Part shown: positions 26-62,264 of the stretch, piece after piece | Layout of the letters: every line of letters begins with the position of its first letter | Position numbering within the stretch: position 1 is the stretch's first letter | Assembly (NCBI RefSeq): GCF_963576615.1 | Contig: NC_088716.1 | Span: forward strand, 43,559,910 to 43,623,909 | Source of the DNA: Watersipora subatra | Taxonomy: Eukaryota | DNA: 64,000 nucleotides | Direction of reading: 5' to 3' | Notes under the pieces: model-generated | What the model saw: only the letters and a program-made list of their open reading frames with translations | Databases searched by the model: none | What the model was told of the DNA's origin: nothing | Position numbers and translations under genes: made by a program

Positions 26-1016
26 TACAGTCACACCTCGACATACGAGTGCTCGACATACGAGTGCTCGACATACGAGTGCTCGACATACGAGTGCTCG
101 ACATACGAGTGCTCGACATACGAGTGCTCGACATACGAGTGCTCGACATACGAGTGCTCGACATACGAGTGCTCGACATACGAGTGCTCGACATACGAGT
201 GCTCGACATACGAGTACTCGACATACGAGTGCTCGACATACGAGTGCTCGACATACGAGAATGTCGGAATATGAGCAAAATTCAGAGCGAGTTACTGCCT
301 TGAGATACAAGAAAACTTTGAGATACAAGCATACGAGCCGGTTTTCGATTCGGCCAGTTGGTGACTGAGTATGTGAGAGGCTGCATTCGAAAGCAGCATC
401 GCTTAGTCTTTCTCATCAAACCAGCTTGAAAAAAGTTTTTAAATTTATAGCAAAAGTGAGGCAAAAGGTGTAAAGTCCAGAAAATATGATAATAAAATTA
501 AAAAAGATCCTATTAAATTGGAGTTAAGTTTAGTAAAAGATTAAAACTCAGCCTTGGGTGTGTGTTCTGTAAACTAGAGTAATTTAAGGTAAATTCAAAG
601 TTTATTTTACAATACGTAGCTACACAAAAGTATAGTGTACCAAATGCGTTGCTGTCAAGCCTCTCCCACCGCTGTAAGCCGCCATACTATGTCTGTCTCA
701 AAGGTAAGAACTCCATACAGCACTGTACATAATAATTCTAAATTTTATTAAAGAGCACTAACCAGCACTAACCGCTAAATAGGTATTTGTTACTTTGTAA
801 GTGCAGGTAGTGAATTACAACAATTAAAAACACATTTTTTTCATCAAAATATTATGTTTGAAGTGGTTTTTTCATAACATGAAAACATTAATTTGTAGTT
901 AGTTATTTTATATAGGAAATATTTATAAAGGAAATATTGTTTTGAGATACAAGAAAATTGACATACAAGCTCAGTCCCAGAACGCATTAAGCTCGTATAT
1001 TGGGGTACGACTGTAC
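26..1016 (+). mobile_element. MITE family 1, copy A. It is a non-autonomous TIR element of about 0.8 kb. Its 5' TIR (TACAGTCA(T/C)ACCTCGACATACGAG) is internally expanded into a 15-bp tandem array.
   Basis: The 5' end is TACAGTCACACCTCGACATACGAGTG and the 3' end is ...CTCGTATATTGGGGTACGACTGTAC, its inverted complement. The body is homologous to copies at 11460-12246 and 36744-37565 (shared blocks GTTACGT.GCGTCACAAAAGTAT, TAAGAACTCCATACAG, AATAGGTATTTGTTACTTTGT). Confidence 0.8.
38..258. repeat. 15-bp tandem repeat (CTCGACATACGAGTG)n, about 15 copies, inside the 5' TIR of MITE1 copy A
   Basis: Near-perfect direct repetition is visible. The three overlapping ORF-track ORFs at 3-303 are artefacts of this array. 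Confidence 0.95.
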
Positions 1017-2220: not shown

Positions 2221-3339
2221 TACAGTGAAACATGGATAACTCGCCCTCGGATATAGCAAACACGTGGTTAACTCGAATGGATTTGCTTGGTCCGTTCCCA
2301 CGCAATGATAAATGGCTCTATATAACTCGAACTCAACACTGTTAATTCGAACTGTCTTTTGCCCAACGGCTACCGAAACGGTTGCTATCGCTTTAGAAAA
2401 TCACTTTATTCAAAGCCACAGAGGTAAACCTCAACTTTTCGTAATTCATAAGCGTCGTTATTACCTCCATCGGCAAAATATTTTTGTCAACGACGTTTCT
2501 AAAGGTTTGGTGAAATTTGATTTATACTGCTATACGATGAATAGCATGCGCGCAAGGATTTTCGCCACGCACATACAAAACAAAAACAGCATGTTGTTTT
2601 TGTTTTGCATTTGCGTGGCGAAAATCCTTAAGTGCGTGACCCGGCTAACCCGTGATGAATAGTTTTCCGACGTTGATTCCGTGTTGAATCAACGTCGAAA
2701 TGTTGAATGTTTAAAACGTCTTAAAAATTGTTGTAATTAAACGTATACATTGTCTTAGCTAAAGAAAACTATTCATCGTTTGACCTAAACACAGAATACG
2801 TGTTTAAATTCAATAAGTATCCATTCAAAAAGCGTGAATGATATACAATGTACCGTAAAACCTCGTAAAACTTTTAATTGAACTGCCTCGGAGTGTTGCT
2901 CTTAACGAATCCCAGGTAAAGTAAGGTAATCTTTGCATAAACATCAAAAAAAATCGGCAAAATTGATCGTGGGTAAAACGCTCAAAAGAAAAAGATGTCT
3001 TTTCTTTTGAGCATTTCAGCAATGATCAAGTTTTGCCAATGTCAATCTAAAAAACGTCCTGGCAATAACATCACCTCAAACAACAAACCAATCTCAAGTG
3101 ATAGAAAAATCTCTATACTTTTTGATAAAAACGTTTTAAACTTTACATTAGAAGCATTTAATTTGAAACAAGCCATTTGTGCTTTTGATTTATATTATAG
3201 TTTGTATATATACATGTATCTACTAATAAATAAGTAAATACATGGACTTGTGACAGTGCTCTGATAACTTGAACGCTCTGATAATTCGAACACTTTTGCT
3301 CGGTCCCTTGAAGTTTGAGTTATCCGAGTTTCACTGTAT
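2221..3339 (+). mobile_element. MITE family 3, copy I (about 1.1 kb TIR element; TIR TACAGTGAAACATGGATAACTCG)
   Basis: 5' TACAGTGAAACATGGATAACTCGCCCTCGG and 3' ...CCGAGTTTCACTGTAT are inverted complements. Colinear with 31456-32402 except for an extra 2520-2900 segment. Confidence 0.8.
2563..2700. repeat. Two hairpin palindromes inside MITE3 copy I (39-bp near-perfect palindrome 2563-2640; 11-bp stem hairpin 2662-2695)
   Basis: AGGATTTTCGCCACGCACATACAAAACAAAAACAGCATG / CATGTTGTTTTTGTTTTGCATTTGCGTGGCGAAAATCCT and GACGTTGATTC..GAATCAACGTC. The segment is absent from MITE3 copy II. Confidence 0.8.
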
Positions 3340-3486: not shown

Positions 3487-3678
3487 TGATTCTAATGGAA
3501 CAAAGAAAGAGAGGACAATACTTACGATTCTAATGGAACAAAGAAAGAGAGGACAATGCTTACGATTCTAATGGAACAAAGAAAGAGAGGACAATACTTA
3601 CGATTCTAATGGAACAAAGAAAGAGAGGACAATACTTACGATTCTAATGGAACAAAGAGAGGACAATACTTACGATTA
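3487..3678. repeat. 38-bp tandem repeat, 5 copies (GATTCTAATGGAACAAAGAAAGAGAGGACAATACTTAC)
   Basis: Direct repetition is visible. Confidence 0.9.
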
Positions 3679-9715: not shown

Positions 9716-10670
9716 TTAGGAACCCAAAGACTATCTTTAGGAATAACCCAAAGACTATCTTTAGGAACCCAAAGACTATCTTTAGGAACCCAAAGACTAT
9801 CTTTAGGAATAACCCAAAGACTATCTTTAGGAATAACCCAAAGACTATCTTTAGGAACCCAAAGACTATCTTTAGGAACCCAAAGACTATCTTTAGGAAT
9901 AACCCAAAGACTATCTTTAGGAACCCAAAGACTATCTTTAGGAACCCAAAGACTATCTTTAGGAATAACCCAAAGACTATCTTTAGGAATAACCCAAAGA
10001 CTATCTTTAGGAACCCAAAGACTATCTTTAGGAACCCAAAGACTATCTTTAGGAATAACCCAAAGACTATCTTTAGGAACCCAAAGACTATCTTTAGGAA
10101 CCCAAAGACTATCTTTAGGAACCCAAAGACTATCTTTAGGAACCCAAAGACTATCTTTAGGAACCCAAAGACTATCTTTAGGAATAACCCAAAGACTATC
10201 TTTAGGAACCCAAAGACTATCTTTAGGAATAACCCAAAGACTATCTTTAGGAATAACCCAAAGACTATCTTTAGGAATAACCCAAAGACTATCTTTAGGA
10301 ACCCAAAGACTATCTTTAGGAATAACCCAAAGACTATCTTTAGGAACCCAAAGACTATCTTTAGGAATAACCCAAAGACTATCTTTAGGAATAACCCAAA
10401 GACTATCTTTAGGAATAACCCAAAGACTATCTTTAGGAATAACCCAAAGACTATCTTTAGGAATAACCCAAAGACTATCTTTAGGAATAACCCAAAGACT
10501 ATCTTTAGGAATAACCCAAAGACTATCTTTAGGAATAACCCAAAGACTATCTTTAGGAATAACCCAAAGACTATCTTTAGGAATAACCCAAAGACTATCT
10601 TTAGGAATAACCCAAAGACTATCTTTAGGAATAACCCAAAGACTATCTTTAGGAATAACGCAAAGACTAA
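9716..10670. repeat. Minisatellite of about 40 units with two alternating unit lengths: 23 bp (CCAAAGACTATCTTTAGGAAC) and 26 bp (with a TAA insertion)
   Basis: Direct repetition is visible. It lies about 45 bp downstream (in gene orientation) of the donor of the exon at 10717-10887. The ORF-track ORF 9679-10773 is an artefact of this array. Confidence 0.95.
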
Positions 10671-11257: not shown

Positions 11258-11459
11258 CTACAAGATGATGAAAAGCTGTGAAGATATGAGCTTATCTACA
11301 GTTTTAGCCCCACATTGTTGCAATAAGGGACAAAAATTGTCACATCTGAATAGCAAGACGTTTGTTAAATTTGAAAAAAAGGTTTAGTTTAAAAAACATT
11401 TTCATCAAAACTGACTAGCCGAATATCTTAGTAAGAGTTGAACTGTATTGTTGCAAGCT

Positions 11460-12246
11460 GTATAGCTTGTGATACGAGTGTACCGACGTGCGATAGATTA
11501 GACATATAAGGGAAACTACGGGCAAATTTCTGCCTTGAGATATAGAAGACAAATATGGACAAATTTGAGACATGAGACAACAAGACAGTTCCCGAGGCAG
11601 CTGCTAAGTGGTCGAGCATGCAAGAAGCAGCTTACAAGAGCAGCATCGCTCGGTATTTCTCGTCAGATTAAAAAATATTTACAAAGGCTGGCTAAAAGTG
11701 ATGGTGAGAGCAAGTCTTAAAGCGAGGTAAAAAGAGTCAAGCAAGAAAAAAAATTTTAAAATAAAAACGATAAAAAATATTTAAGCTTTGTGTATGATTG
11801 AAACTTATTTCTAAGTGTTTGCATAGTAAGCCAAATTCATTTAAATTAAATTTAAAGTTTATGATATGTTACGTTGTGTCACAAAAGTATATAGCGTACC
11901 AAATGTGTTGCCGTCAAGACTCTCTCACACCATCGTTATCAGTTACTGTCTGTTACAAATGTAAGAACTCCATACAGTACTGTACATAGCGATGTCACAT
12001 TATATTGCAGATCACAACCACTAGATAAGTATTTGTTACTTTGTGAGAAAATGTGGTGAATTAGAATAATTAAAAACATATTTGTCCATTGTAATATCCT
12101 ATTTTGGTGTTTTTTCAGAAGGTGGGAACAGATTTTTTTTTTTTAAATTATTTTATATTAAAAAAGTTGGTTTGGGATGCGAGTGAATTGACATACAAGC
12201 TCAGTCCCGGAACACACTAAACTCGTATGTCAAGGCATTACTGCAC
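11460..12246 (+). mobile_element. MITE family 1, copy B (5' end degraded)
   Basis: Colinear homology with copy A. The 3' end GACATACAAGCTCAGTCCCGGAACACACTAAACTCGTATGTCAAGGCATTACTGCAC. The start is approximate. Confidence 0.7.
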
Positions 12247-14593: not shown

Positions 14594-14712
14594 ACTTTGC
14601 CTTAACTCAGCAAACATACAGCAAACGTACAGCAAACGTACAGCAAACGTACAGCAAAGGTACAGCAAACGTACAGCAAAGGTACGACAAACGTACGGCA
14701 AACGTACAGCAA
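14594..14712. repeat. 14-bp tandem repeat (CAGCAAACGTACAG)n, about 8 copies
   Basis: Direct repetition is visible. It lies about 130 bp from the VWA exon at 14846-15032. Confidence 0.9.
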
Positions 14713-19485: not shown

Positions 19486-20724
19486 TACAGTCATACTTCA
19501 ACTTACGAGCTTAATGCGTTCCGAGACTGAGCTCGTATGTCAATTTACTTGCATGTTGGTGCAATTCATTTATATATAGAACAATTATATATATATTGAT
19601 TGGTTTCCATACTCTAGAAACAGCAAATAAAAAACACTCAAAACAATATATTGTAACAGAAAGAACATGTTGGTTATTGTCCTTACGTACTACATGCTTT
19701 CAAAAAGCAACAAATAAAAAATAATGCAAGGAAATGTGATTAATTAAAATGTAAAATTAAATACATACAATTGCAGTTAACACTCGCATTTGCCAGGGAG
19801 AGAGATATAAGTTATCCTTCGTTACAACAGTTGACTTTGATAAAATTGGATTTTATCAAAGTGTTAAAAGACAAACTTAGAAGCAAACCTAAAAGCAAAC
19901 TTTCATTTTCAACTAAACGTAATTAAAATTTCTTCGGCGTTCATAGTTTGAAGTTTCTCGCTGGTTAGCTAGAAATTTGTCCTTTTTTTCCGCTTTCACG
20001 ACTAGCCGGCCGTTTTAAGAAAAACCTATCTAAGGACGTTTGCCTTTGTCGCCCTTGCAACATGTTGCGATTAGGACGAACGCAGGTGTCATCACAAATG
20101 GTTAATGCATGACCACTAGCCAACTTGTCCGAATGCCTATTAAACAGTTTGGATAGATAGCGCCGGCCTTTTCACATAGCATCGTTTCAGTTACGCTGTC
20201 ACCGGCCAATTGTTTGTCCAATGCCATCAGCGGTCGTGAAGATCGCTGCACCGTTTAGAAACTATGGTTAGTCTTTTTGCGAACTAAATGCCCTGAATAT
20301 AATCCTTCTGTTTGATAATTATGAATGTATTTCTGTCATATTGCCGAGCTAGCTCAATCACGCATACACATTTCGCATATTTTTCAATATTTTCCGTTTA
20401 ATATCGACTGTTATCATTTGCTTTTTCTTTGTATTATCTTTCATTTTACTGGCAAACATTCGGTCTACGCACAGTACTCTTAATTCACATAATTCTGCAC
20501 AGAAAATCGTGCACAAAAAACACGGTACAACAGTATAACCTGAGCAGTTGAAAAATACAGAGTGATGCTGTTCTCATAAAACACCTCCGGCATACTTGGC
20601 AACTGACTCAAGTGCTCGTATCTCAAAAATGGCTCGTATGTTAGTGCTAAAACTTGCTTGAAAGCTGGCTCGTATCTCAAGTTTCTCGTACGTTGGAGCA
20701 CTCGTAAGTTGAAGTATTACTGTA
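19486..20724 (-). mobile_element. MITE family 1, copy D (reverse orientation, divergent or insertion-bearing interior)
   Basis: 19486-19560 is the inverted 3' end (TACAGTCATACTTCAACTTACGAGCTTAATGCGTTC...). 20560-20724 is the inverted 5' region (...CTCGTAAGTTGAAGTATTACTGTA). The interior at 19600-20550 is not shared with the other copies. Confidence 0.6.
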
Positions 20725-21282
20725 ATGAGAATATTGTAGTTAGCTTTAAAACGTTGCTTTCTTTTCCCCGCCGCACTTGTAAGACAAAATTACTTACGCA
20801 TAGCGTCATTTCTGTTATACTGTATTCAAGTTCCATGGCATTCTAGTTGGCCGTGACAGATCGTCAGATGTGTCGCATAACAGAGAGAATAAGTAGCTGT
20901 GCAATTATTTTAGAAATACTTAAAGGCGGTCGATTGGTTCAGGTGTTACAACGCCGGTCTATCAATCTAAATGTCACGAGTTGCAGTATCGTCAATCCTA
21001 ACCTTGCCCCCTAGACACAGATACAGGTACAAGCAAGGTACAAACAGGTACAACCCGCTCTTATTATAGTTAAAAAAAATTTTGTTTTACGTTATTGTAG
21101 ACGCATAAAATTTTTGTTATTAGGTTTTCTTTGCAGAGTAGACCTTGCGGTCTAGAAAAAATAAACAAATCATAGTGAATTGACGTCAAAAATGTACTTA
21201 GCTTATTGTAAAATTACCGTAATCATGGTCCATAAAACGAGTGAAAGTGATAAGAAAAGAAGAAAAGTTGGAGATTCAAACC

Positions 21283-21690
21283 AATAATACTGCAGTTATG
21301 GTACAGCCCACAAACCAATAATACTGCAGTTATGGTACAGCCCACAAACCAATAATACTGCAGTTATGGTACAGCCCACAAACCAATAATACTGCAGTTA
21401 TGGTACAGCCCACAAACCAATAATACTGCAGTTATGGTACAGCCCACAAACCAATAATACTGCAGTTATGGTACAGCCCACAAACCAATAATACTGCAGT
21501 TATGGTACAGCCCACAAACCAATAATACTGCAGTTATGGTACAGCCCACAAACCAATAATACTGCAGTTATGGTACAGCCCACAAACCAATAATACTGCA
21601 GTTATGGTACAGCCCACAAACCAATAATACTGCAGGTATGGTACAGCCCACAAACCAATAATACTGCAGTTATGGTACAGCCCACAAAGT
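21283..21690. repeat. 40-bp tandem repeat, 10 copies (CAAACCAATAATACTGCAGTTATGGTACAGCCCACAAAC)
   Basis: Near-perfect direct repetition. Confidence 0.95.
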
Positions 21691-26102: not shown

Positions 26103-26745
26103 ATGCAGTTACATCTCCCTCTCTCCATCTCTCCCTCTTTCCCCTCTCTCCCTCTCTCCCCTCTCTCTCTCCCTCCCTCTTTCTCTCCCTCTCTCTCTCC
26201 CTTCCCCCCTCTCCTCCTCGCTCTCCTTCTCTCTCTCCTTCTCTCCCTCTTTCCCCTCTCTCCCTCTCTCCGTCTCTCCCCTCTCTCTCTCCCTCCCTCT
26301 TCCCCCTCTCCCTCTCTCTCTCCCCCTCTCTCTCCCTCTTTCCGTCTCTCCCTTCTCTCTCTCTCTCTCCCCCCCTCTCCTCCTCGCTTTCCCTCTCTCT
26401 CTCCTTCTCTCCCTCTCTCCGTCTCTCTCCCTCTCTTCCCTCTCTCTCTCCCTCTTCTCCCTCTTTCTCTTCCTCTCTCTCCCTCTCTCTCTCCCCCCCC
26501 CCTCTCCTCCTCGCTCTCCCTCTCTCTCTCCTTCTCTCCGTCTCTCCCTCTCTCCCCTCTCTCTCCCTCCCTCCCTCTTCCCCCTCTCTCTCCCTCTTTC
26601 TCTCCCTCTCTCTCTCCCCCCTCTCCTCCTCGCTCTCTCTCCCCTTCTCTCCCTCCCCCCCTCTCTCTCTCCCCCCTCTCCTCCTCGCTCTCCCTCTCTC
26701 TCTCTCTCCCTTTCTCTCCCTCTCTCTCTCCCTTAGTTCAACGCG
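26103..26745. repeat. Polypyrimidine (CT-rich; CTCTCCCTCTC...) tract of about 640 bp
   Basis: Visible composition. The ORF-track ORFs 25941-26766 (both strands) are artefacts. Confidence 0.95.
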
Positions 26746-31194: not shown

Positions 31195-31440
31195 ACAGAT
31201 TGTGGTCAGAAGCTAAGGCTAACCTAGATGGTGTTGATAGAGCTAGTGTGTTCTGCACTATCTATACCAACTGATGTTGATAGAGTTAGAATGTTCTGCA
31301 CTATCTATACCAACTCATGTCAATATGGTTAGTGGGTTCTGCACTATCTATACCAACTGATGTTGATAGAGTTAGAATGTTCTGCACTATCTATACCAAC
31401 TCATGTCAATATGGTTAGTGGGTTCTGCACTATCTATACC
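31195..31440. repeat. Tandem repeat of about 43 bp, about 6 copies, abutting MITE3 copy II
   Basis: Repeated (T)TCTGCACTATCTATACCAACT(G/C)ATGT(T/C)(G/A)ATA... units. Confidence 0.8.
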
Positions 31441-31455
31441 AACTCATTTACTAAG

Positions 31456-32402
31456 TACAGTCAAACATGGATAACTCGCCCTCGGATAGCTCGAACACAT
31501 GGTTAACTCGAACGGTTTCTTTGGTCCGTTCCCACGTAATGATAAATTGCTTTAGATAACTCGACCTCAACTCTGTTAATTCGAACAGTTTTTTGCCCAA
31601 TGGCTACCGAGACGGTTCTTTATCGCTTTAGAAAATCACTTTATTCCAAGCCATAGAGGTAAACCTCAACTTTTCGTAATTCATAGGCGTCGTTATTACC
31701 ACCCTCAGCAAAGTAATTTTTGTCAACGACTTTTCTTAAGGTTTGGCGAAATTTGATTTTTACCAAACATCCGCTTAGGAATCGCTCTTCGGAAGCAAGG
31801 AAAAGTGAGGTAATCTTTGCATAAACTTCAAGAAAAATCGGCAAAATTGATCGTGGGTAAAACGCTCAAAAGAAAAAGATGTCTTTTCTTTTGAGCATTT
31901 CAACAACGATCAAGTTTTGCCAATGTCAATCTAAAAAACGTCCTGGCAATAACATCACCTTAAACAACAAACCAATCTCAAGTGATAGAAAAATCTCTAT
32001 ACTTTTTGATAAAAACGTTTTATCAAAAAGATAGTGGGTAAAACGCTCAAAAGAAAAAGATGTCTTTTCTTTTGAGCATTTCAACAACGATCAAGTTTTG
32101 CCAATTTTAATCTAAAAAATGTCCTGGCAATAACATCACCTCGAACAACAAACCAATCTCAAGTGATAGAAAAATCTCTATAGTTTTTGATAAAAAGTTT
32201 TAAACTTTACATTAGAAGCATTTAATTTGAAACAAGACATTTATGCTTTTGATTTATATTATAGTTTGTATATGTACATGTATCTACTAATAAATAAATA
32301 AATACATGGACTTGTGACAGTGCTCTGATAACTTGAACGCTCTAATAACTCGAACACTTTCGCTCGGTCCCGTGAAGTTCAAGTTATCCATGTTTGACTG
32401 TA
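31456..32402 (+). mobile_element. MITE family 3, copy II, with an internal tandem duplication of about 180 bp (31850-32030 and 32030-32200)
   Basis: 5' TACAGTCAAACATGGATAACTCGCCCTCGG and 3' ...CCATGTTTGACTGTA. Colinear with copy I. Confidence 0.8.
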
Positions 32403-34689: not shown

Positions 34690-35215
34690 CTACGATAAGC
34701 AAAATCAAGTGTTTGTAGTCTAGGTTAGACTAGCCTAGGTTAGACTAGCTCTGTATCTTTATCACAACTTCTACCTGCATGAATACTAGTCTAGGTTAGA
34801 CAAGTCTAGGTTAGACTAGCTCCGTATCTCTATCACAACTTCTACCTGCATGAATACAAGTCTAGGTTAGACTAGCTCCGTATCTCTATCACAACTTCTA
34901 CCTGCATGAATACAAGTCTAGGTTAGACTAGCTCCGTATCTCTATCACAACTTCTACCTGCATGAATACTAGTCTAGGTTAGACTAGTCTAGGTTAGACT
35001 AGCTCCATATCTCTATCACAATTTCTACCTGCATGAATACAAGTCTAGGTTAGACTAGCTCCGTATCTCTATCACAACTTCTACCGGCATGAATACAAGT
35101 CTAGGTTAGACTAGCTCCATATCTCTATCACAACTTCTACCTGCATGAATACTAGTCTAGGTTAGACTAGCTCCGTATCTCTATCACAACTTCTACCTGT
35201 ATGAATACAACATCT
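34690..35215. repeat. 60-bp tandem repeat, about 9 copies (TAGTCTAGGTTAGACTAGCTCCGTATCTCTATCACAACTTCTACCTGCATGAATACAAG)
   Basis: Direct repetition with occasional unit doubling. It lies in the intron between the exons at 34545-34643 and 36541-36672. Confidence 0.95.
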
Positions 35216-35504: not shown

Positions 35505-36400
35505 TCAAAGGTTGACTTGCAGCAAAATTCACATTACAGTTATTTGGTATCAAAAGATTCACCATGCCTTACTCTGTTGTGTTGTAAGTGCCAAATGTGT
35601 GGAAAAGTGATTACAAGCTCTTAAAAGCTCAAAAACGATAAGCCGCCTTAGACTGGAATCTCTTTATTTCTCTGACATAGCCATGAAATTTATTTATTGT
35701 CTTGTCACGGATGTTCTCACGTGAATTGAAAGGTCAATAAAAAGCTCAATATAAAACTTATCGTAGCACTAGTTTATGACAAGCACTTCGGGTTTTACCG
35801 AAGACCCCGTATCAAATATAGATGCTCACTACTTTACAGTTTTGTTTCGGCCTGGTCTAATCGGCAAGTCGTAATCTGATTATGTGACCCAATACTTCGA
35901 AAATAATTTTTGCAGCACTTTTCGATTATCAAAGGCGACCAACAGGCTCGTCATGATTATCAAACAATGATATGTACTCCTTCGAGGTAAGGCTAAAAAC
36001 TAAAAAACTAAATGAATTTTTACGGCAAGTTATAAGATATCACTGCTAAAAGTGACAGCATTTACAATGACGATAAAACAGACGCGTAAGAACAATAGAC
36101 ATGGTTTTATTGAACGTGTGAAGTATATTTGCGAAAATATTTCGACAAATAAGGTTGCATGAAAGTGTAAACAAAAACCATTTTTCACAATTACATCACA
36201 TTTGAGCCGTTTTGGAAAGAGAATCCAAACTACGGCGGTCTCGTGTGGCTGCGATTAACTGTTCATTTTTTAGCTTTTAAGAGCTTGTAATCACATACCC
36301 ACATATTTGGCACCTACAACACAACAAAGTAAGACATGGTGAATCTTTCGATATCAAATAACTGTAATGTGAATTTTGTTGCAAGTCAACCTTTAATGTT
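35505..36400. mobile_element. Foldback/long-TIR element: about 150-bp inverted arms (35505-35655 and 36250-36400) around a 600-bp core
   Basis: The arm GGTTGACTTGCAGCAAAATTCACATTACAGTTATTTGGTATCAAAAGATTCACCATGCCTTACTCTGTTGTGTTGTAAGTGCCAAATGTGTGG... is mirrored by its reverse complement at 36250-36400, with about 85-90% identity. Confidence 0.8.
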
Positions 36401-36672: not shown

Positions 36673-36743
36673 TGCAAAAAAATATGAGTAAACGTAAAAC
36701 ACAGGGCACCGTTTTAGACTCAAGTTCTTAGCAATGAGTTATC

Positions 36744-37565
36744 TACAGTCATACCTCGACATACGAGTGTACTACAGTCATACCTCGACATACGAGTGCC
36801 CAAAATATGGGAAAATCGAGATACGGACAAAATTCCAAGCATATTTATGGCTTAAGGTACAAGAACCCTTTGACATATGAGCATACAAGACAGTTCTCGA
36901 TGGCCACTAAACGGCTAAGCATGCGAGAGGTCAAAAGGTCAAGCATGCGAGAGGTCAGTTTGAGAACAGCATTGCTCGGCCTTTCTCATTGACTCAGTTT
37001 AAAAAAGTTTTAAACATGTCGGCTAAAAGTAATAGTGAACGTGAGGCAAAAAGCACCAAGCGAGAACAGATGGTAAAAAATTAACACGAAGACAAAATGA
37101 AAGTTAAGAACAAGATTAAACCTCAGCTTTATGTGTGTGTTTTTAGTGAGCTGAAATCATTTAAGCTAAATTCCAATTTATGTTATGTTACGTAGCGTCA
37201 CAAAATTCTAGTGTACCAAACGCATTGCTGTCAAGTATCTCACACCGCCGTTAGCCAGTACATCTGTCTCGAAGGTAAGAACTTTGAACAGAGCGTAAGT
37301 AGTACTGTTACATTTCACTACATAATTATCCTAACCACTAAATAGGTATTTGTTACTTTGTGAGTGTAGCTACTGAATTCAACAAATCAAAACACGTTTT
37401 GCCATAATTGTATCCTGTGTTTGGGTGATTTTTCAATAGTATGGGAACGGATTAACTTGTATTTAGTCATTTTATATAGGAAATATTGCATTGAGATACC
37501 AGATCATGGACATACGCCCTCAGTGGCAAAACGCATTAAGCTCTTATGTTGAGGTATGACTGTAC
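36744..37565 (+). mobile_element. MITE family 1, copy C (5' TIR duplicated 2x)
   Basis: Starts TACAGTCATACCTCGACATACGAGTG TAC TACAGTCATACCTCGACATACGAGTG and ends ...GAGGTATGACTGTAC. The internal blocks are shared with copies A and B. Confidence 0.8.
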
Positions 37566-43162: not shown

Positions 43163-44189
43163 CTGTAGAACAAACAGGCATTAAATAGCTGTACAAAGTT
43201 TTCAGATCAAAACATTTGAAAAAGAAACTTCTACTTATGACAGCTAACATAAACTGACATAATTTTATTACGACTACACATAAAGATCATTGAACTAAAC
43301 TTTTAAAATTTCTATAACTCTAATTTCAAAAAGACTTCTTGATACCGAATAAATCATTCAGGCCAGTAAACAATTGGGGTAAAGTAAGGAGTTAAACCAG
43401 AAATTCTAGAGCAGCACCATCTGATACACTAGCACTTCCGATACAACAGGCTTATTTACAACAGGCTCGTTTACCCTTTCAACTCAAAATTGTCTGGATA
43501 AATTTTTAAAAAAGATTTCAAAACACCAAAAACAAAAATTCAAAATTGTGAATTTTATCTCAAAGCTTATAGTGAAGGTAGTTTTCTGCCCATGTGCTAT
43601 GTTAGAGGGTTGTCTTAACTGGGTCATAGTAAATTACTCAGTATTCTAGCGGCAATGTAAGGATGGCATCCCTAACATTGGTAAAAACCTGTGTTAACCC
43701 GAAAGCTTTACCCACATTTAAAACTACATTTTGCAATTCGGGTTTAATTGTGTTTGTGATAGCTATTCCACTGCCATATTTTCACATCCAATAAATTTGC
43801 AAACTAGCCAAGTCTTACAAAATACTTTTCTTGCAAAAATAATTGTGCTCATAAGAAACCTTGAGGAATGGCAGATAAGCAACACAAAGTTCATAAACAA
43901 AAGCGATACGAGTCAGGTTTCACACGGCCCAGCATAAAATTATCAGACATATTTCAAGGCTACCAAACGCTTGACTTTGTTTGTCAGGACAATAACACTT
44001 CAGAAAAGATTTAGTAACAATGTTTGAACACACCTGCCTTGAGGCATGATTGTAGCTATGGCCTTTTTGACTAAATTACAAAAATAAGGATTTAGATTTC
44101 ACTTCTAAAAAGTAAGACAAGTCCAAGTCTATATAATATCATCAGTGATCAGAATATTATACATATATGTATATGTTTTGTGCCAACAT

Positions 44190-44496: not shown

Positions 44497-44650
44497 AACG
44501 AGTTATTTTAACCAAGAGTAAGTTATTTTAACTAAGAGTAAGTTATCTTAACCAAGAGTAAGTTATTTTAACCAAGAGTAAGTTATTTTAACCAAGAGTA
44601 AGTTATTTTAACCAAAGTTATTTTAAACAAGAGTAAGTTGTTTTAACCAA
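44497..44650. repeat. 21-bp tandem repeat (ACCAAGAGTAAGTTATTTTAA)n, about 7 copies
   Basis: Visible. Confidence 0.9.
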
Positions 44651-45780
44651 GAGTAAGTAACACCATAAAATCACTTGTAATAAATGTTCACCAGGCGTAT
44701 GCTAAAGCAGTTGTACAGAACTATATGGAGTTCAATCATACAAACATATGCAAACAATACATCTATACAAACATATGGAGTTCGATCTGACAGATTTAAT
44801 AGTATTATTACTATTAAGCTAGCTTTTAACTAGGCCAAATCAATTTATGAGCTGGGCAGTGTATTATTACCCAGTCTTCTAGTTGAAACTTGACTCAGAA
44901 AGTAAAATAATTAGCTAAAAACCTGCTTCTACTGATATAATTGCCAACACAATGGACAGACTTTAAATCTTCACTGTCATTCATTCCCCATCATTAGTTT
45001 GCATTAGTTTTTAAATCAAAAAATTTGCTACTTGAAAATTCATCATTTAGTTTTGCGAATCAAACTTCTGTGAAACATCAGTAAAAAAATGATTTAAAAT
45101 TTTACATTTAAACTGAATTAGAAAAAGAAAACAAATTTTTCTCTCTATACACTGAAAATCCCAGTTTACAACTACTCTACATATGAATCTCTTGAGATAT
45201 GATGTACAAGTGGACAAACATTTAGCAATCAATCTTCATAAAAAAAAGATTTAAATTAATTAGTTTTTGTTTTAGCATAAATCAAAATAATGAAAAATTC
45301 CAAGTTTCCAAAATTTTGTAGAAGCGCCATTTTAAAATTTCAAAAATGGTTTAAGTTTGAGGCACAAAGTTAATCAATTATCATGATATGATGGACGAGA
45401 GTAGAGAATTAATTTAGATCAAGAAAAACTAGCACCATATCACCTGTTCCATGTCACGATATGATGTTGGGAAAAGATAGCATCATACGGGATTCGAACC
45501 AGCAGAACCACAGAATTCAGCATCATCGGACAGCACGCTACTACTTGAGCCAATAAGTTACCTTCACATACTAAAGTATTATTGTACATATACAAGCAGT
45601 TATAAAATGCTTTTTATCAGCCTGCCTGACGATTGCTCTCGGCACCCGAGACTGCCAGAGTACTGTGCGTAACGACAGTACCGTATTATCTTATCCAGCG
45701 ATGATAACTATTGATAGTCGCAATAAGTATTCACACTTCATAGCACAGTTATAGCTCTAGAGATTGTAGTCATGGATTAC

Positions 45781-55290: not shown

Positions 55291-55413
55291 ACACCCCAAG
55301 GCGTTGTCATGGGTGGTTTGGGAAAGATTATGTTAGCCAATATTTAATGCGAATTCACACACAACATTAGTGTTGAATGTGCTTTGTCATCTCATTCTAT
55401 TTTGACTATGCAT

Positions 55414-58400
55414 GTGATGTTATGCAACAATTAACATAGGTTTATGTTTTGGTTAAAAGCAAACTCAACAATATATTCCGGTCTTGTTAGTTTCCATTCT
55501 TTTTCAGAGCAACCCAAAACGAAACTCATAGCGAGTCAACCAAAAACTATAATAAACAACATCCGGTTTATACAAATACATAACATCTCCCTTTCTAGAA
55601 GGATTGTCAAAACAAATAGTATGTATTTAGTTAGAGTTCAGATAGTTAATATTGGCTTTGTCTTTTATCCGCTAGGATCATAGTCCTCCAAGTATAAAGG
55701 CTTCTTCTTCGACCTCTGTGGTCTACCATACCCATGGTCCAAATCAGTATGCCTGGCTACAGTGCCCTCTGCAACATCTGACTTGGACCCCCGGCACTCA
55801 CTAGGACTGGCATGTGGACTGTACCAAGTTGTCCTGCCCTCTGCGTCACCAGTGGCGTCAGGAGAGCGAGGAACTCGACTAGCTTTTGTAGTGGTCTGAC
55901 ATTGACCATGGCCTTCTGTGAAGAGTTCCTCACCCCAGTTCTGTTGTGGAGTCTTGGATTCTGGTTGTACATCTATCAAGGCACTTCTGTTGCGTCTTAT
56001 AACCCCATTTTCAGTCTGAATTGAGTAAGACCTTGGTGCTAACATTTTTATCACAGTACTTTCTCTCTGCTTATCTCTAATATATACATTGTCTCGTGAA
56101 TATAATTCTGGTAGCTCCTTGGCTCAATTCTGATCATGGACACCTTTTGCATACTGTCTCTTCTCCTTTTTAGAATCCTCAATTTGGCTTCTCGCAGTAA
56201 CTTTCTGCAGCAAGTTATCAGTAAGAGTTGGTAGTGTAGTTTGGATAAGTCTTCCCATCAAAAGTTCTAAAGGAGTATACCCATTCTCAAGGGGAGTAGC
56301 TCTATATGTCAGTAAGCTCAAATGAGGATCCGATGTTTTCCACATTCGTTTGATAGTCCCCACCGCTCTCTCCGCTTTTCCATTAGCTCTTGGGTAACAT
56401 GGAGAACTAGTCATATGTATAAATCCATAGTCTTGTACAAACTTCTGAAATTCTCCAGATGAGAATTGTGGGCCATTGTCCGATATCAGCACTTCGCCAA
56501 TGCCATGTTAGCAAACACAGATTTGAATGCCTCAATGGTGTCAATTGAGGTAATTGAAGGCAGTTTTCTAACTTCAATCCATCTGCTGTAATAGTCAACA
56601 ATAAGTAGATAGTGAGACTTCTGGAGTTCAAGCAGGTCGGCTCCAAGCCTTTCCTATGGTCTCTCAGGCAAGGTGGAGGGACACAAAGGTTCTATAGGTG
56701 TATCAGAGTTGAGTTTGCAAACATGGCAACTCTGAACCATCTCATGAATTTGTGTGAACATTCTAGGGCACCATACAGATCTCCTAGCTCTCAGTCTACA
56801 TTTTACAATGCCCTGATAAGCCTGGTAAATTCTGTCTAAGATACTTAGTCTCTCGCTGGTGGGTGCGACAATCCTGCTGTCTTACAGAAGGACTTCATTA
56901 ATCACTTTGAGATGTTCCTTTACTTCCCAGTAAGGATGTATAGCTGTGTATGCATCGGTTTTGTATGTAGGCCAGCCCTCCTGGCAACATTGAACAACCT
57001 TTCTACATATCTCGTCTTTCTCCTGAGCTAACTTCAGCACCTCTACTGCCTAGTTGGTTGGTAAGCTTTCCCTTTTGGCAATCTCCATTTCCTCAACCAA
57101 TAGAATGTCTCCACCTTTGTAAGTGTCTACGGGTGCTCTTGAAAGAGCATCCACTAGACAATGGCTTTTCCCTGGTACATATTCAACCTTGGGAGCATAA
57201 CGCATCAGTCGAAGCCACATACGCAGAATTCTAGGTGATGCCTGGTCAAGGTCTTTAGTTGTCATGATAGGGACCAGCGGTTTATGATCAGTTTCCAAGG
57301 TGAATGTCATCCCTTGAACAAACTGGTCAAATTTGTTACATGCCCATACTGCTCTTAATGCCTCTTTCTCAATGGTAGCGTACCGTTTTTCTGTGTCTGA
57401 TAGTGAGCGATAAGCATAAATAACTGGGCATGTTGTACCATCAGCCTGAATCTGATACAAAGTAGCCCCCAGTCCCACATTACTAGCGTCTGTACCTATA
57501 ATAGTAGGCAGGTTAGGACTGTAATGAGCCATCGTCTTAGACGATTCGAGCGTTTCCTTAACCTCGGTGAAAGCCCTCTCCTGGTCGGAACCCCATAACC
57601 ATTCTCGATTCTCCTCAACAACTCTCTCATAGGTGCATTGAGAGTTGCTAGTTGAGGTACAAACTTAGCCATTTGGCTCAACGTGCCATTCAATCTGCGC
57701 AACTCTGTCTTGCTGGTTGGTGCAGGATATTCTGTAATAGCAGTAACTTTAGCTTGGTCTGGCTCAACGCCATGGCTATCAATGTGTTCCAGAAAATTCA
57801 ATGAATCTTTTCTGAATTCACATTTCTTAATATTCAGTGTAAGTCCTGATGCAAGTAGTCTCTAGAACTTCATATAGCACCTTGTCATGAGTTTTAAGGT
57901 CAATCACATGTATCAGGACGTCATCTATGTGGTAAATCACTGCTGGTATTCCCTCTAAGACTTTTGACATCACTCTCTGGAATATCTCGAGAGCGCTTGC
58001 CATTCCAAATGATAGTCTATTAAATCTGTATCTACCAAAGTGTGACAAGAATGTTGTGAGTTTCTGTGATTCCTCAACCAACTTAACGTGCCAAAACCCG
58101 CTATTGGCATCTAGTTTGCTAAATATTGTACTGTCCCCAAGCTGACTCAAGCTCTCATTCACGGTAGCCATTGGATGGATCTTTCTTCATACTGCTTCGT
58201 TTAACCCAGTGAAATCTACACAGATTCTCAACCCTCCAGACAGTTTAGCGACAGTGACCAACCCACTACACCATTCCGTAGCCTCAGTTACTGGTAATAT
58301 CACACCTTGGTTGACCATCTCCTGTAACTGTGTTTTAGCTTTTTCTCGCAAAGGATGTGCAATATTTCTAGGTGTGTATATACAAGTCGGTTTGCTACCA

Positions 58401-59513
58401 TCTTTAAGAGAAATTTTATATGTATAACCTGTCAGTAAACCCAGTCCCGAAAACAATTTAGGAAACTCGTTAACAATTGGGCTAGCCTCTCAAGTTTGAA
58501 GGCTTAGCAGCTTCATTCACGTGACAAGTCACAAGTCCTAGTTTTGAGCATGCATTTCTACTGAGTAGTGAGGCTGCCTGATTCTTCAGTACATAAGCAG
58601 TCTCCACATGTATCTTTCTCTGGTAAGACATCTTAGCTTCAAAGGTTCCTAATATTTCTAACCGGTTACCTCCAGGTCCATGTAGAACAACATCAGTTTC
58701 ACATAGCTTTATATGCTTCATCCATGGCTCTGTGTCACTTACTATAGTGCCATCAGCACCTGTGTCTAAATTGAACAATGTTTCATGTCCATTTATCCCA
58801 ACCCGTGCATTCCAACGATCCACCTCTCCAATAGTTAGTCCACCAGTAAACAGGAAGTCGTCCTCACTCTCGGCGACCTCTCTCTCTCTCTGATATCACT
58901 TCCTGTACCTGCCTAGACCTGCATTGTCTAGCACAGTGACCAATCTTTTTGCAATTTCTGCACTCTACAGCTCTAGCTAGACATTGTGACAGTGAGTGCG
59001 GTTCTCTGCCACATATACTGCATACTCTATCGATTGGAGAGCTTTGTGTAGCCTTTTTAAAGCCTTATAGCCTTGTAGCCTTATATCAACAAAGCTTGTT
59101 GATACTCAGCAATTTCTCCATTTAACCTAGTTAACACCCTAAAGCATTCCGTCTGCTCTTGAATGTTTTAAAGTTTGATTCACGATCACCACTCAATACT
59201 AGCTCGGCAGGTGGATCTACCCTGGGAATAGGTCTAGCATTATTTACAGTATTTTGTATTACAACTGGTTTTTGAGGCCCTTCTGCTGGCTCTACTGAAT
59301 CAACCATTGTTACATTTATCTGTAAACCACCGCTGCCACCATGTGATGTTATGCAACAATTAACAAAGGTTTATGTTTTGGTTAAAAGCAAACTCAACAA
59401 TATATTTTGGTCTTGTTAGTTTCCATGCTTTTTCAGAACAACCCAAAACGAAACTCAGAGTGAGTCAACCAAAAACTATAATGAACATCATCCGGTTTAT
59501 ACAAATACATAAC
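55414..59513 (-). mobile_element. Compact Ty3/gypsy LTR retrotransposon (about 4.1 kb). It has 180-bp LTRs (TG...CA), a primer-binding site, a polypurine tract and a 5-bp target-site duplication ATG(C/T)A. The gag is short with one CCHC knuckle. The pol PR-RT-RNaseH-IN is frameshifted.
   Basis: LTRs at 55414-55593 and 59338-59513 are about 90% identical. In element orientation the 5' LTR ends ...CATCACA and is followed by TGGTGGCAGCGGTGG, a candidate primer-binding site. The purine run GAAAGGGAGA immediately precedes the 3' LTR start TGTTATGTATTTG. Flanks are gactATGCA[element]ATGTAtagtttg, and the paralogous empty site at 54128 reads gactATGTTtagtttg. Pol motifs: DTGADGT (PR, 58482-58823), YHIDDVLIH and FGRYRFNRLSFGMASA (RT, 57827-58456), TDASNVGLGATLYQ (RNase H, 57050-57532), an integrase core ending CYPRANGKAE (56124-56492), and a gag C..C..GH..C knuckle at about 58890-58990. 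Confidence 0.85.
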
Positions 59514-59517
59514 AATG

Positions 59518-60176: not shown

Positions 60177-62264
60177 CTAGCTGGTTTCTTGCTTCCGAAA
60201 CACTTTCCCACGCCCTCTCATGTTACTTATGAACCGTATAGCATCATTCTGTACTAGCTCTATGCATTGGATTGTGTTTTTATTGGTTGGGTCCCAGACA
60301 GCATCTGCATATTCTAGAATTGGTCTACATAGACTTGTGTATGCGAGCAGTTTATCCTCCTTTGTGGCGCTATACATCAGATGTTTAATGCCCCCCAGTA
60401 TCTTCCTTGATTTACTACATTTGCTCTTTATGTGTTGATCGAATTTTAGATCTGACTGGATGATCACACCTAGATATTTTGTGTCCTCTGTCCAGACAAG
60501 AGGTAAGTTTCCTAGGTTATACGTAAACTGCTGGCTCATTGTACCAAAGCATATTGCTTGGCACTTTTTCTCATTGAATGGCATTTTCCATTTTTTTGAC
60601 CAGTTGTACACTTCCTTAATGTTATTTTGGAATATTTGGCATCCCCTGAACTATTAACTTCTTGGTAAATTAGTGTGCCATCAGCGTAAAGGCTAACATT
60701 GCAGAATAAACTCTCAGGTAGATTGTTAATGTAGCATAGGAAAAGGTAGGTCCCAGTACCAAGCCCTGTGGGACTCCAGATGTTACAGCACATTTCTGAG
60801 AACTATTTCTGTTGGGTACTACAGATTGTTCCCTGTCAGATAGGAAGTCGTGGATCCAGTTAATGAGTTGTGTGTTTATCCCTGGTATGCTTTGTAGTTT
60901 TTCAAGGAGCAGTAGATGTGGAACATTGTCAAAAGCCCTTTTGAAATCCATGATGATGGTGTGAGTGGTATGGCCATCGTCTGCTGCTTTTGCCAGTCCG
61001 TTGTATGTGGCACAGAGCTGAGTTTGACAGGACACTCCCCTCATAAAGCCATGTTGTCGGTAATGAAGTACGTCATCAAGTGTCTTGTTTAGATAATGCA
61101 ACACTATGTGTTCCATCATTTTACAGGGTATGCTTGTGAGTGATATTGGCCTGTATTTATTAGGTAACTCTGGGTCTCCCCCTTTATGTACAGGGGTTAC
61201 ATTGACATATTTCCACTGTTCAGGAAGTTTTCCAGATTTTAGAGAAGCTTTGTAAATCAGTGCTAGTGCTTTCGCAGTGGTTGGCAGGTCTATTAGCCTG
61301 TCAGGTTTCCTAATTCCATCAGATCCTGGTGATTTTCCATTTGGCAAGTCGCATATGAGTTTCGCCACTCTATCAGTTGTTATGTTTAGACTGTCATCAT
61401 CACTCTCTATCCGTTTAAAATCCTTGGCTAAATAACCATCTTGGAACTGGCTGTGGAAGAAAATGTTCAGTAGTTCAGCACAGTGCTCAGGGTTTTCTGT
61501 GAGGATATTCTGACCATCCCTAAGTGTTTTCTGGCTAGATATTTTGTTCTTGTCTGCACCAAGGAGTTTGAAGAAGAGCTTTGAGTTTCCTTTTTTAGTG
61601 GTTGATATATTCTATTTGTATAATATGCTTTTCAAATAGCGTCTAGCCCCTTTTTAGTTTCTCCTCGTGTTTGTTTGAATTTTCCTTAGACCTTATATAT
61701 GCATTTCTTTGCATATATCGAAGTTTTAGTGCCCGCTTGCTGAACCAATCTGGTGTAGATGGGTGTCCTCCTTATTGGTACATACTGCTCATTACTTCTG
61801 GTTAGATTTTTAGTAAAGATATCCCACTTTAGCTCAGGGTCAGTCAATTGAGCAAGTTCTTCATTTGTGTTTTGCATATCTATTTGAAATGTTTCCTCGT
61901 CTGCTTTCTTGTACTGTTTGATAGTGTGTGGTCTAGGGAAAGCAGATATGATTTCTTCTTGAAGATACACAGTGATAAAAGAGTGATCACTTAGTCCTGG
62001 TGCTACAACTTCAGTATCAAGAATGTAGGTTTGGTGATTGGTACACACTAAATCTAGAGTATTACCTAGTACATGTGTAGGACCAGTTATTAATTGTTTT
62101 ATCCCGTTGCTGTGTAACACATCAAGAAAGGCTTGCTGCACTCTTTTGAATGGAGCTGATATTTTGACCTTCTCTTTTGTCCAGTAAATACCTGGAAAGT
62201 TCATATCCCCAACAAATAGTATATTGTGTCCCTGGAACTCTCTTTCTATCCCAAAACAAGTCAC
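60177..62264 (-). mobile_element. Non-LTR retrotransposon (LINE) ORF2: the C-terminal part of the APE endonuclease plus reverse transcriptase. It is 5'-truncated or degenerate and interrupted by a frameshift or stop.
   Basis: Minus-strand ORFs. 61686-62264 carries ...GDMNFPGIYW...LSDHSFITV (the APE endonuclease SDH motif). 60670-61368 carries RT motifs YRPISLTSIPCKMMEHIV, HGFMRGVSCQTQL, IIMDFKRAFDNVPH, SGVPQGLVLGPTFS. 60177-60611 carries the RT C-terminus KKCQAICFG...YLGVIIQSDLKF...CRPILEYADAVWDP. Confidence 0.85.

Follow-up and report, generated by a model that had tools for sequence, protein, structure and literature searches.

How did fifteen nearly identical copies of a short sequence come to lie head to tail inside one end of a transposable element? 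The question is raised by the first kilobase of the 64 kb stretch of DNA analysed here (the window), where a preliminary description had reported about fifteen tandem copies of a 15 bp piece of the TIR of an element family that it named "MITE1", and had taken them for a microsatellite born inside a transposon terminus. The features of this copy of the element, copy A, are as follows.

26–27, plus strand: left TA of copy A, a target-site duplication by the family rule.
28–51, plus strand: 5' TIR of copy A, CAGTCACACCTCGACATACGAGTG; its nt 10–24 are the first array unit, and it pairs with 990–1013 at 17 of 22 positions.
37–261, plus strand: minisatellite of 15 head-to-tail 15 bp units of CTCGACATACGAGTG (TRF, unit table, hairpin ladder).
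262–335, plus strand: remaining native subterminal motif copies of copy A, namely TGTCGGAATATGAG, GAGATACAAG (twice) and CATACGAG.
28–1013, plus strand: copy A, a non-autonomous Tigger derivative ("MITE1"), about 790 bp long without the expansion.
990–1013, minus strand: 3' TIR of copy A, reverse complement CAGTCGTACCCCAATATACGAGC; a single unit with no array.
1014–1015, plus strand: right TA of copy A.

TRF finds the array at window positions 37–259, with a period of 15, 14.9 copies, 99% matches, 0 indels and a score of 439. Read unit by unit it extends over 37–261 and contains thirteen exact copies of CTCGACATACGAGTG, one variant unit that ends in GAGTA (202–216) and a last unit that ends in GAGAA, so the earlier count of about fifteen was right. 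Since its unit is 15 bp long the array is a minisatellite, and the name microsatellite, which belongs to units of 1–6 bp, does not fit it. The array starts 9 bp inside the left end of copy A, which reads TA followed by CAGTCACACCTCGACATACGAGTG, and its unit is nt 10–24, the inner 15 of the 24 bases, of the copy A TIR (nt 12–26 of the longer TIR given in the preliminary description, TACAGTCACACCTCGACATACGAGTG); as had been proposed, it is an in situ expansion of a piece of the 5' TIR. The unit is also identical, at 15 of 15 positions, to the TIR of another copy of the element in the window, copy C. The TIR tip and unit 1 (ending in GAGTG) flank the array on one side and the orthologue of unit 2 (ending in GAGAA) on the other, and the orthologue of unit 3 follows directly after the last array unit.

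When up to two mismatches are allowed, the 15-mer CTCGACATACGAGTG occurs 18 times in the window, where 0.04 occurrences are expected, and all 18 are within MITE1 termini; this search of the 64 kb found the 15-mer nowhere else and no free-standing arrays of it, so that within the window there is no satellite stage. A TIR-like match at 44039–44054 is a chance one; the A/B/C profile has no match there. No array is present at the 3' end of copy A, which has a single unit, and the foldback-type arrangement with subrepeats at both ends thus does not apply. The viral-contig collection contains no exact tandem dimer of the array unit, a query with the array translated in all six frames gave no match among public ORF calls (a weak negative), and exact look-ups of four window ORFs, array-derived ones included, also gave no match.

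Copy A is one of four. All of the copies listed in the preliminary description exist as members of a dispersed TIR family, but the right-hand coordinates that it gave for A and C were 1 bp too long; with TA included, the whole copies span 26–1015 (A) and 36744–37564 (C). The other members are as follows.

About 11455–12245, plus strand: copy B, with a degenerate 5' terminus, the right TA mutated to CA, and one recognisable and two decayed units.
36775–37562, plus strand: inner, complete element of copy C, with TA at 36773–36774 and 37563–37564; unit 1 is intact and unit 2 (CCCAAAATATGGGAAA) is decayed at CpGs.
36743–36771, plus strand: extra end of copy C, consisting of C, TA and the 24 bp TIR, then a TA spacer; a 27 bp exact duplication with a period of 29.
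19486–20724, minus strand: copy D, 1,239 bp, an internal-deletion derivative of the autonomous Tigger element; its 5' end carries the motif five times in direct orientation.
19965–20450, minus strand: decayed transposase remnants in copy D (N-terminal HTH region and C-terminal tail, the DDE core being deleted).

The colinearity on which the preliminary description had staked its family holds: A, B and C align over about 750 sites and are 70.0% (A–B), 74.6% (A–C) and 68.1% (B–C) identical. A profile search matches copy D to them along about 190 bp of its 5' end and about 530 bp of its 3' end. The intact ends all have the form TA/CAGT...ACTG/TA, the element itself running from CAGTC to GACTG, and this form is the signature of TA-targeting Tc1/mariner/pogo elements. 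The look for target-site duplications that had been suggested found TA at both ends of A, C and D, with the right TA of B mutated to CA; TA also lies on both sides of the element in contig L007, at both recovered ends of that in L008 and at the 5' ends of those in L001 and L002, four public contigs discussed below. That TA is duplicated on insertion we take from the family rule. The leading TA of the 28 bp TIR originally given is this target-site dinucleotide; the TIR is real and about 24 bp long, and its two ends match at 17 of 22 positions in A, 20 of 22 in C and 21 of 22 in D. With a size of about 790 bp (the upper limit for a MITE), three short copies in 64 kb, and identities of 68–75%, which is not homogeneous, "MITE1" is MITE-like and not a textbook MITE.

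The parentage of the family is indicated by copy D, the longest of the four. Its stitched peptide is 59% identical to the public ORF P0001, which carries HTH_Tnp_Tc5 (PF03221); Pfam gave no meaningful match to the stitched pseudo-peptide itself, and a solved-structure search with it returned a chance match only. P0001 is encoded by the public contig L001, where the element starts with the terminus of D (TA followed by CAGTAATACTTCAACTTA) and encodes CENP-B_N (PF04218), HTH_Tnp_Tc5 (PF03221) and DDE_1 (PF03184, E = 1e-39), and the search for a cognate transposase proposed in the preliminary description has thus found one with the same terminus. The L001 element appears to be near-intact; its two ORFs do not share a frame, and the contig breaks off before the stop codon. 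Among named proteins its DDE part is closest to [quoted passage not shown] (95% identity), followed by dozens of Tigger1-like proteins from vertebrates and arachnids at 55–71% identity; P0053, from Watersipora subatra, is 95% identical to the L001 transposase.

Copy D corresponds to the L001 element minus about 1.2 kb that contain the DDE core, its positions 1–579 and 584–690 matching L001 1202–1810 and 3030–3136. The profile of A, B and C matches D in turn at profile positions 1–208 and 217–785. From this match to the ends of D, and from the relation of D to L001, "MITE1" is recognised as the two ends of a Tigger element with the entire transposase gene removed. The identity between D and P0001, the L001 domains, the named relatives and the deletion breakpoints between D and L001 are the basis on which the whole family is assigned as internal-deletion derivatives of a Tigger1-like pogo transposon (Tc1/mariner superfamily). 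These non-autonomous TIR elements are Tigger/pogo deletion derivatives and not an orphan MITE. A D-type derivative with identical breakpoints is present in the public contig L002 (7274–8230, 88.8% identical to window 19795–20724), and this recurrence implies that the 1.2 kb D-type form, with the HTH region and C-terminal tail and no DDE core, has itself been amplified as a non-autonomous subfamily.

Complete Tigger1-like elements are found in L007 (541–3320) and L008 (267–2858), which are from unrelated marine metagenome assemblies; their transposases are 67–70% identical to that of L001, and their TIR has the same terminus as the window family (TACAGTAGTACCTCTACTTACGA...). We note that the terminal architecture, a TIR plus 16 bp iterated 5' modules, is strongly conserved across hosts despite the 67–70% transposase identity. 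A description of this TIR and its modules would aid annotation of the Tigger family in lophotrochozoan genomes. The termini of the window family presumably resemble those of human Tigger1 as well; the comparison relied on here is that with L007 and L008. A literature search for the human Tigger1 TIR string found no paper, and the 5' TIR pattern was absent from the JGI metagenomes. Three external matches to the 3' subterminal pattern were all due to chance, with no flanking similarity. A dispersed repeat with 86–89% identity is present at window 35507–35642 and 36213–36398, at L001 915–999 and at L002 278–464, and this common repeat suggests that the ENA metagenome contigs L001 and L002 come from the same animal as the window or a closely related one.

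What the array grew from can be seen when the 5' ends are compared in a 16 bp register. Those of D, L001 and L002 read TA followed by CAGTAATA, CTTCAACTTACGAGTG, CTCCAACGTACGAGAA and ACTTGAGATACGAGCC in succession, and then two spaced copies; units 1 and 2 in D are adjacent and identical at 12 of 16 positions. L008 has the same three-unit 16 bp register and L007 has five direct motif copies, and in D, L001, L002, L007 and L008 two or three adjacent copies of the 15/16 bp module are already present at the 5' end. The motif is enriched in the window, where it occurs 42 times against 10.7 expected. From its iteration in these five elements it follows that the module is a conserved feature of the Tigger lineage, not an accident of one copy. 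The preliminary description had the array born inside a unique terminus and named the short direct repeat CGA..CGAG as the cause of slippage. Both points have to be given up: the seed is a tandem pair of 15/16 bp modules native to the Tigger lineage, and the 7 bp spacing of the short repeat cannot give a 15 bp period, which the native module spacing fits.

The last unit of copy A ends in GAGAA, as does unit 2 of D, L001 and L002, and unit 2 of copy C, CCCAAAATATGGGAAA, is what CTCGACATACGAGAA becomes, mainly by CpG decay. The simplest history is that A and C had an ancestor with two nearly identical adjacent 15 bp units, which grew to fifteen in A and were lost as a repeat by mutation in C. 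Because the unit makes up the inner 15 bases of the 24 bp TIR, and because the lineage has conserved its iteration, it is probably, at moderate confidence, a transposase-binding module. The number of units per 5' end is 15 in A and 1–3 in B, C, D, L001, L002 and L008. Copy A is the one expanded case among the ends inspected (four in the window, two close and two distant relatives), so that a propensity of this terminus for expansion has a single case behind it (n = 1), besides the different duplication in copy C.

The array also carries an indication of its age. There is one substitution in its 14 full units (about 0.5% divergence) and 30 of 30 CpGs are intact, while the K2P distances between the element copies are 0.32–0.42 and the two TIRs of copy A are mismatched at 5 of 22 positions. 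Given this low divergence against that of the elements, the array is much younger than copy A, or continuously homogenised; either way it is the result of a post-insertion, local process. The age of the insertion is not firmly fixed by these values, because the divergence among A, B and C may partly predate insertion if they descend from different source copies.

It is likely, in our judgement, that copy A is an old, immobile, non-autonomous Tigger1-like derivative in which the native module pair grew from 2 to 15 units long after insertion. A deletion derivative of a Tigger1-like element (pogo group) would have inserted at a TA, its 5' end natively bearing two adjacent direct copies of the inner 15–16 bp of the TIR in addition to spaced copies. 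Long after that insertion the unit 1–unit 2 pair would have misaligned, by slipped-strand mispairing at replication and/or by unequal exchange, mechanisms that we infer, and the pair in copy A would have been enlarged from 2 to 15 units. Hairpins of the quasi-palindromic unit may have helped slipped-strand mispairing. As single-stranded DNA the array is predicted to fold as a ladder of 10 bp hairpins (CGAGTGCTCG / ACATA / CGAGTGCTCG), with an MFE of -64.7 kcal/mol against -44.7 +/- 3.2 for shuffles (z = -6.2), and structures of this kind favour slipped-strand mispairing.

The duplication in copy C bears on the choice of mechanism. It had been described as a single duplication of the whole TIR; TRF does find a 27 bp exact direct repeat there, with a period of 29, at 36743–36798, but the repeat takes in one flanking base (C) and the TA and is therefore not purely TIR. 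Because these 3 bp of flank are included, it arose separately, after insertion, and not by slippage of the 15 bp unit. In view of its period of 29, its piece of flank and its TA filler, break repair explains it no worse than slippage does, and for this reason a transposase- or repair-mediated origin is kept as the main rival explanation of the array in copy A. A nested or second insertion at the copy C end is less parsimonious, as the duplicate has the flanking C and is identical at 27 of 27 positions. We note that a TA spacer (36770–36772) stands between the two ends of copy C, where the duplicate includes the flanking C; the spacer might be filler from break repair.

According to this rival the array was made by transposase action: the 5' end was cut repeatedly, or excision there was aborted, and SDSA gap repair followed, with template slippage on the repeated binding modules. 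The array does begin only 9 bp from the cleavage site, and copy C has its independent duplication at the same end, where the TA, the one flanking base and the TA filler resemble break repair more than slippage. A nearly intact relative of the transposase is present in L001 and a Tigger1-like gene is annotated in Watersipora subatra, and DSB-repair routes to TE-derived repeats have been discussed (PMC9659126). However, with TIRs mismatched at 5 of 22 positions and an element sequence 25–30% diverged, copy A would have been a poor substrate when the young array formed; moreover, nothing similar is seen at its 3' end and no footprint-like scars are visible. We consider transposase action unlikely as the source of the array.

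The array might instead have arisen once in a source element and been spread by transposition, copy A then being one of many members of an array-bearing subfamily. Tandem repeats inside MITEs do spread with their elements, as in DTC84 and pearl (PMC3879986) and in the (GTCY)n MITEs and miDNA4 (PMC9659126), but every other copy, whether from the window or from L001/L002, stays within the native 2–3 units or below, the array is only about 0.5% diverged in a host copy that is old, and the six-frame translations mentioned above, as a weak negative, point the same way; such a subfamily seems very improbable. Nothing specific speaks for an error of assembly in which the units of a low-complexity stretch were mis-counted, beyond the fact that tandem repeats are a common source of such errors. 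The array is only about 225 bp long, lies between stretches of unique element sequence and has a variant unit in its interior, and if the source is the Watersipora subatra HiFi assembly (PMC12902671) single reads span it many times, so that an artefactual length is scarcely credible. Local growth of the native pair in copy A is the reading that we carry forward. The locus is a likely length-polymorphic marker.

Whether the family is a general source of such arrays is a different matter. The preliminary description held that it supplies satellite seeds, but among 14 arrays tested in the window only this one matches it; the other 13 have no MITE1/Tigger match, and the claim has no support beyond this one copy. 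If arrays arose uniformly, the background of the window would predict 0.62 of them for the 3.6 kb of MITE1 sequence (P = 0.46 for at least one). The only unusual point is that the array lies within the terminal 50 bp (post hoc, P about 0.03). Minisatellites are plentiful in the window: 11 distinct arrays (period at least 7, at least 3 copies) make up 4.4% of the 64 kb. The stretches noted are 9721–10669, 21277–21688, 34800–35210, 44501–44658, 14608–14712 and 26114–26730, and examples of the arrays are 24 bp x 41.5, 34 bp x 12 and 56 bp x 7; there is in addition a TC-rich tract of about 620 bp.

The four copies had been placed in the introns of a PARP4 gene. Exon-like ORFs on the minus strand between 14610 and 52125 have domain matches in the order BRCT, PARP catalytic, VIT and VWA, most single-exon domain scores being below the Pfam thresholds, as expected for fragments:

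51.8–52.1 kb and 48.5–48.8 kb, minus strand: BRCT.
33.4–33.8 kb, minus strand: PARP catalytic.
28.0–28.3 kb (87 bits) and 22.8–23.2 kb, minus strand: VIT.
14.6–15.0 kb, minus strand: VWA.

This is the order of domains in PARP4. Copies B, C and D do lie between exons of this PARP4-like gene, but A is downstream of the last recognisable exon. A composite query that included the array translations gave no match for the host VWA exon in the public protein collection.

Other mobile elements are present in the window. A second TA-flanked DNA-transposon family, with the TIR TACAGTCAAACATGGA, has copies at 31456–32402 and 2221–3339 that are 89–97% identical; the 31.4 kb copy contains an internal 181 bp x 2 duplication (31849–32202) and adjoins a 43/86 bp array (31232–31447), and the 2.2 kb copy is followed by a 38 bp x 5 array (3488–3677). 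On the minus strand at 55411–59514 there is an LTR retrotransposon with 175 bp direct repeats (94.9% identical) and protease-, RT-, RNase H- and integrase-like ORFs, and it is adjoined by a LINE-like element, also on the minus strand (60177–62264), with endonuclease and reverse-transcriptase ORFs.

Among known systems, the family is most like the Tigger1-like pogo elements, in its TA flanks, its TIR of about 24 bp that begins with CAGT, its partner with CENP-B_N, HTH_Tnp_Tc5 and DDE_1 domains, and its short copies, which consist of the ends of the long element without the gene. It differs from known Tigger derivatives in its apparently bryozoan host, probably Watersipora subatra or a relative, and in having one copy with an expanded terminal module, and from a textbook MITE burst in that the window copies are longer (about 790 bp) and far less homogeneous (68–75%). 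The bivalve and insect tandem-repeat MITEs (pearl, DTC84 and DINE-1-like elements) have AA target sites and a family-wide architecture in which central core repeats are combined with a tetranucleotide microsatellite, and a relation to Helitrons is assumed for them (PMC3879986). They resemble the present family as short non-autonomous elements with internal tandem repeats in a lophotrochozoan; here, in contrast, the repeat is a terminal TIR module, is private to one copy and lies in a TA-targeting Tigger derivative.

The closest parallel to the iterated module itself is Lemi1/Emigrant of Arabidopsis, where a pogo-like transposase footprints the TIR and also the extra subterminal repeats of its inner (3') half, an arrangement described as the same in Sleeping Beauty (PMC1636448). 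The iterated unit in the window similarly comprises the inner 15 bases of the 24 bp TIR, and its binding by the transposase is putative. The subterminal copies in Emigrant are few, spaced and partly inverted, whereas here they are direct, with two adjacent and with fifteen in one copy.

Every unit of the array contains sequence derived from a pogo/Tigger transposase recognition region, which recalls satellites that carry the CENP-B box. This box resembles pogo/Tigger TIRs, and the passage of such binding sites into satellite motifs is a long-held idea (Kipling and Warburton 1997, here as cited in PMC6947457 and PMC3879986), on which the present case bears. The array could be viewed as fifteen copies of a functional Tigger transposase-binding module, midway between a pair of binding sites and a satellite with a pogo-type box in each unit, the route proposed for the CENP-B box; that it is such an intermediate we regard as decidedly doubtful. 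On this doubtful reading, and provided that the array is still bound by the transposase or by a domesticated relative of it, the locus could act as a transposase sink or as a protein-bound patch of chromatin in the PARP4-like gene. In contrast to CENP-B-box satellites it is a 225 bp array, presumably intronic, and not a centromeric one, and its motif is distinct from the CENP-B box.

[quoted passage not shown] In Drosophila, a duplicated part of the outer TIR founded the Tetris repeats, and the TIR repeats of Galileo carry extra transposase-binding sites (PMC4079207). As in Tetris, Galileo and Xstir, a segment of the TIR is repeated in tandem within the element, in numbers that differ from copy to copy. 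The repeats of those elements are longer (about 220 bp in Tetris), are often in both TIRs (foldback-like), are common to many copies and have in some cases escaped as satellites, whereas the repeat described here has a 15 bp unit, is at one end of one copy and has no free-standing arrays in the window. It is a clear but ordinary case of a known minisatellite origin, which changes no current view, and to the known TIR-derived tandem repeats it adds a bryozoan Tigger case in which a single window shows both the 2-unit ancestral state and the 15-unit derived one.
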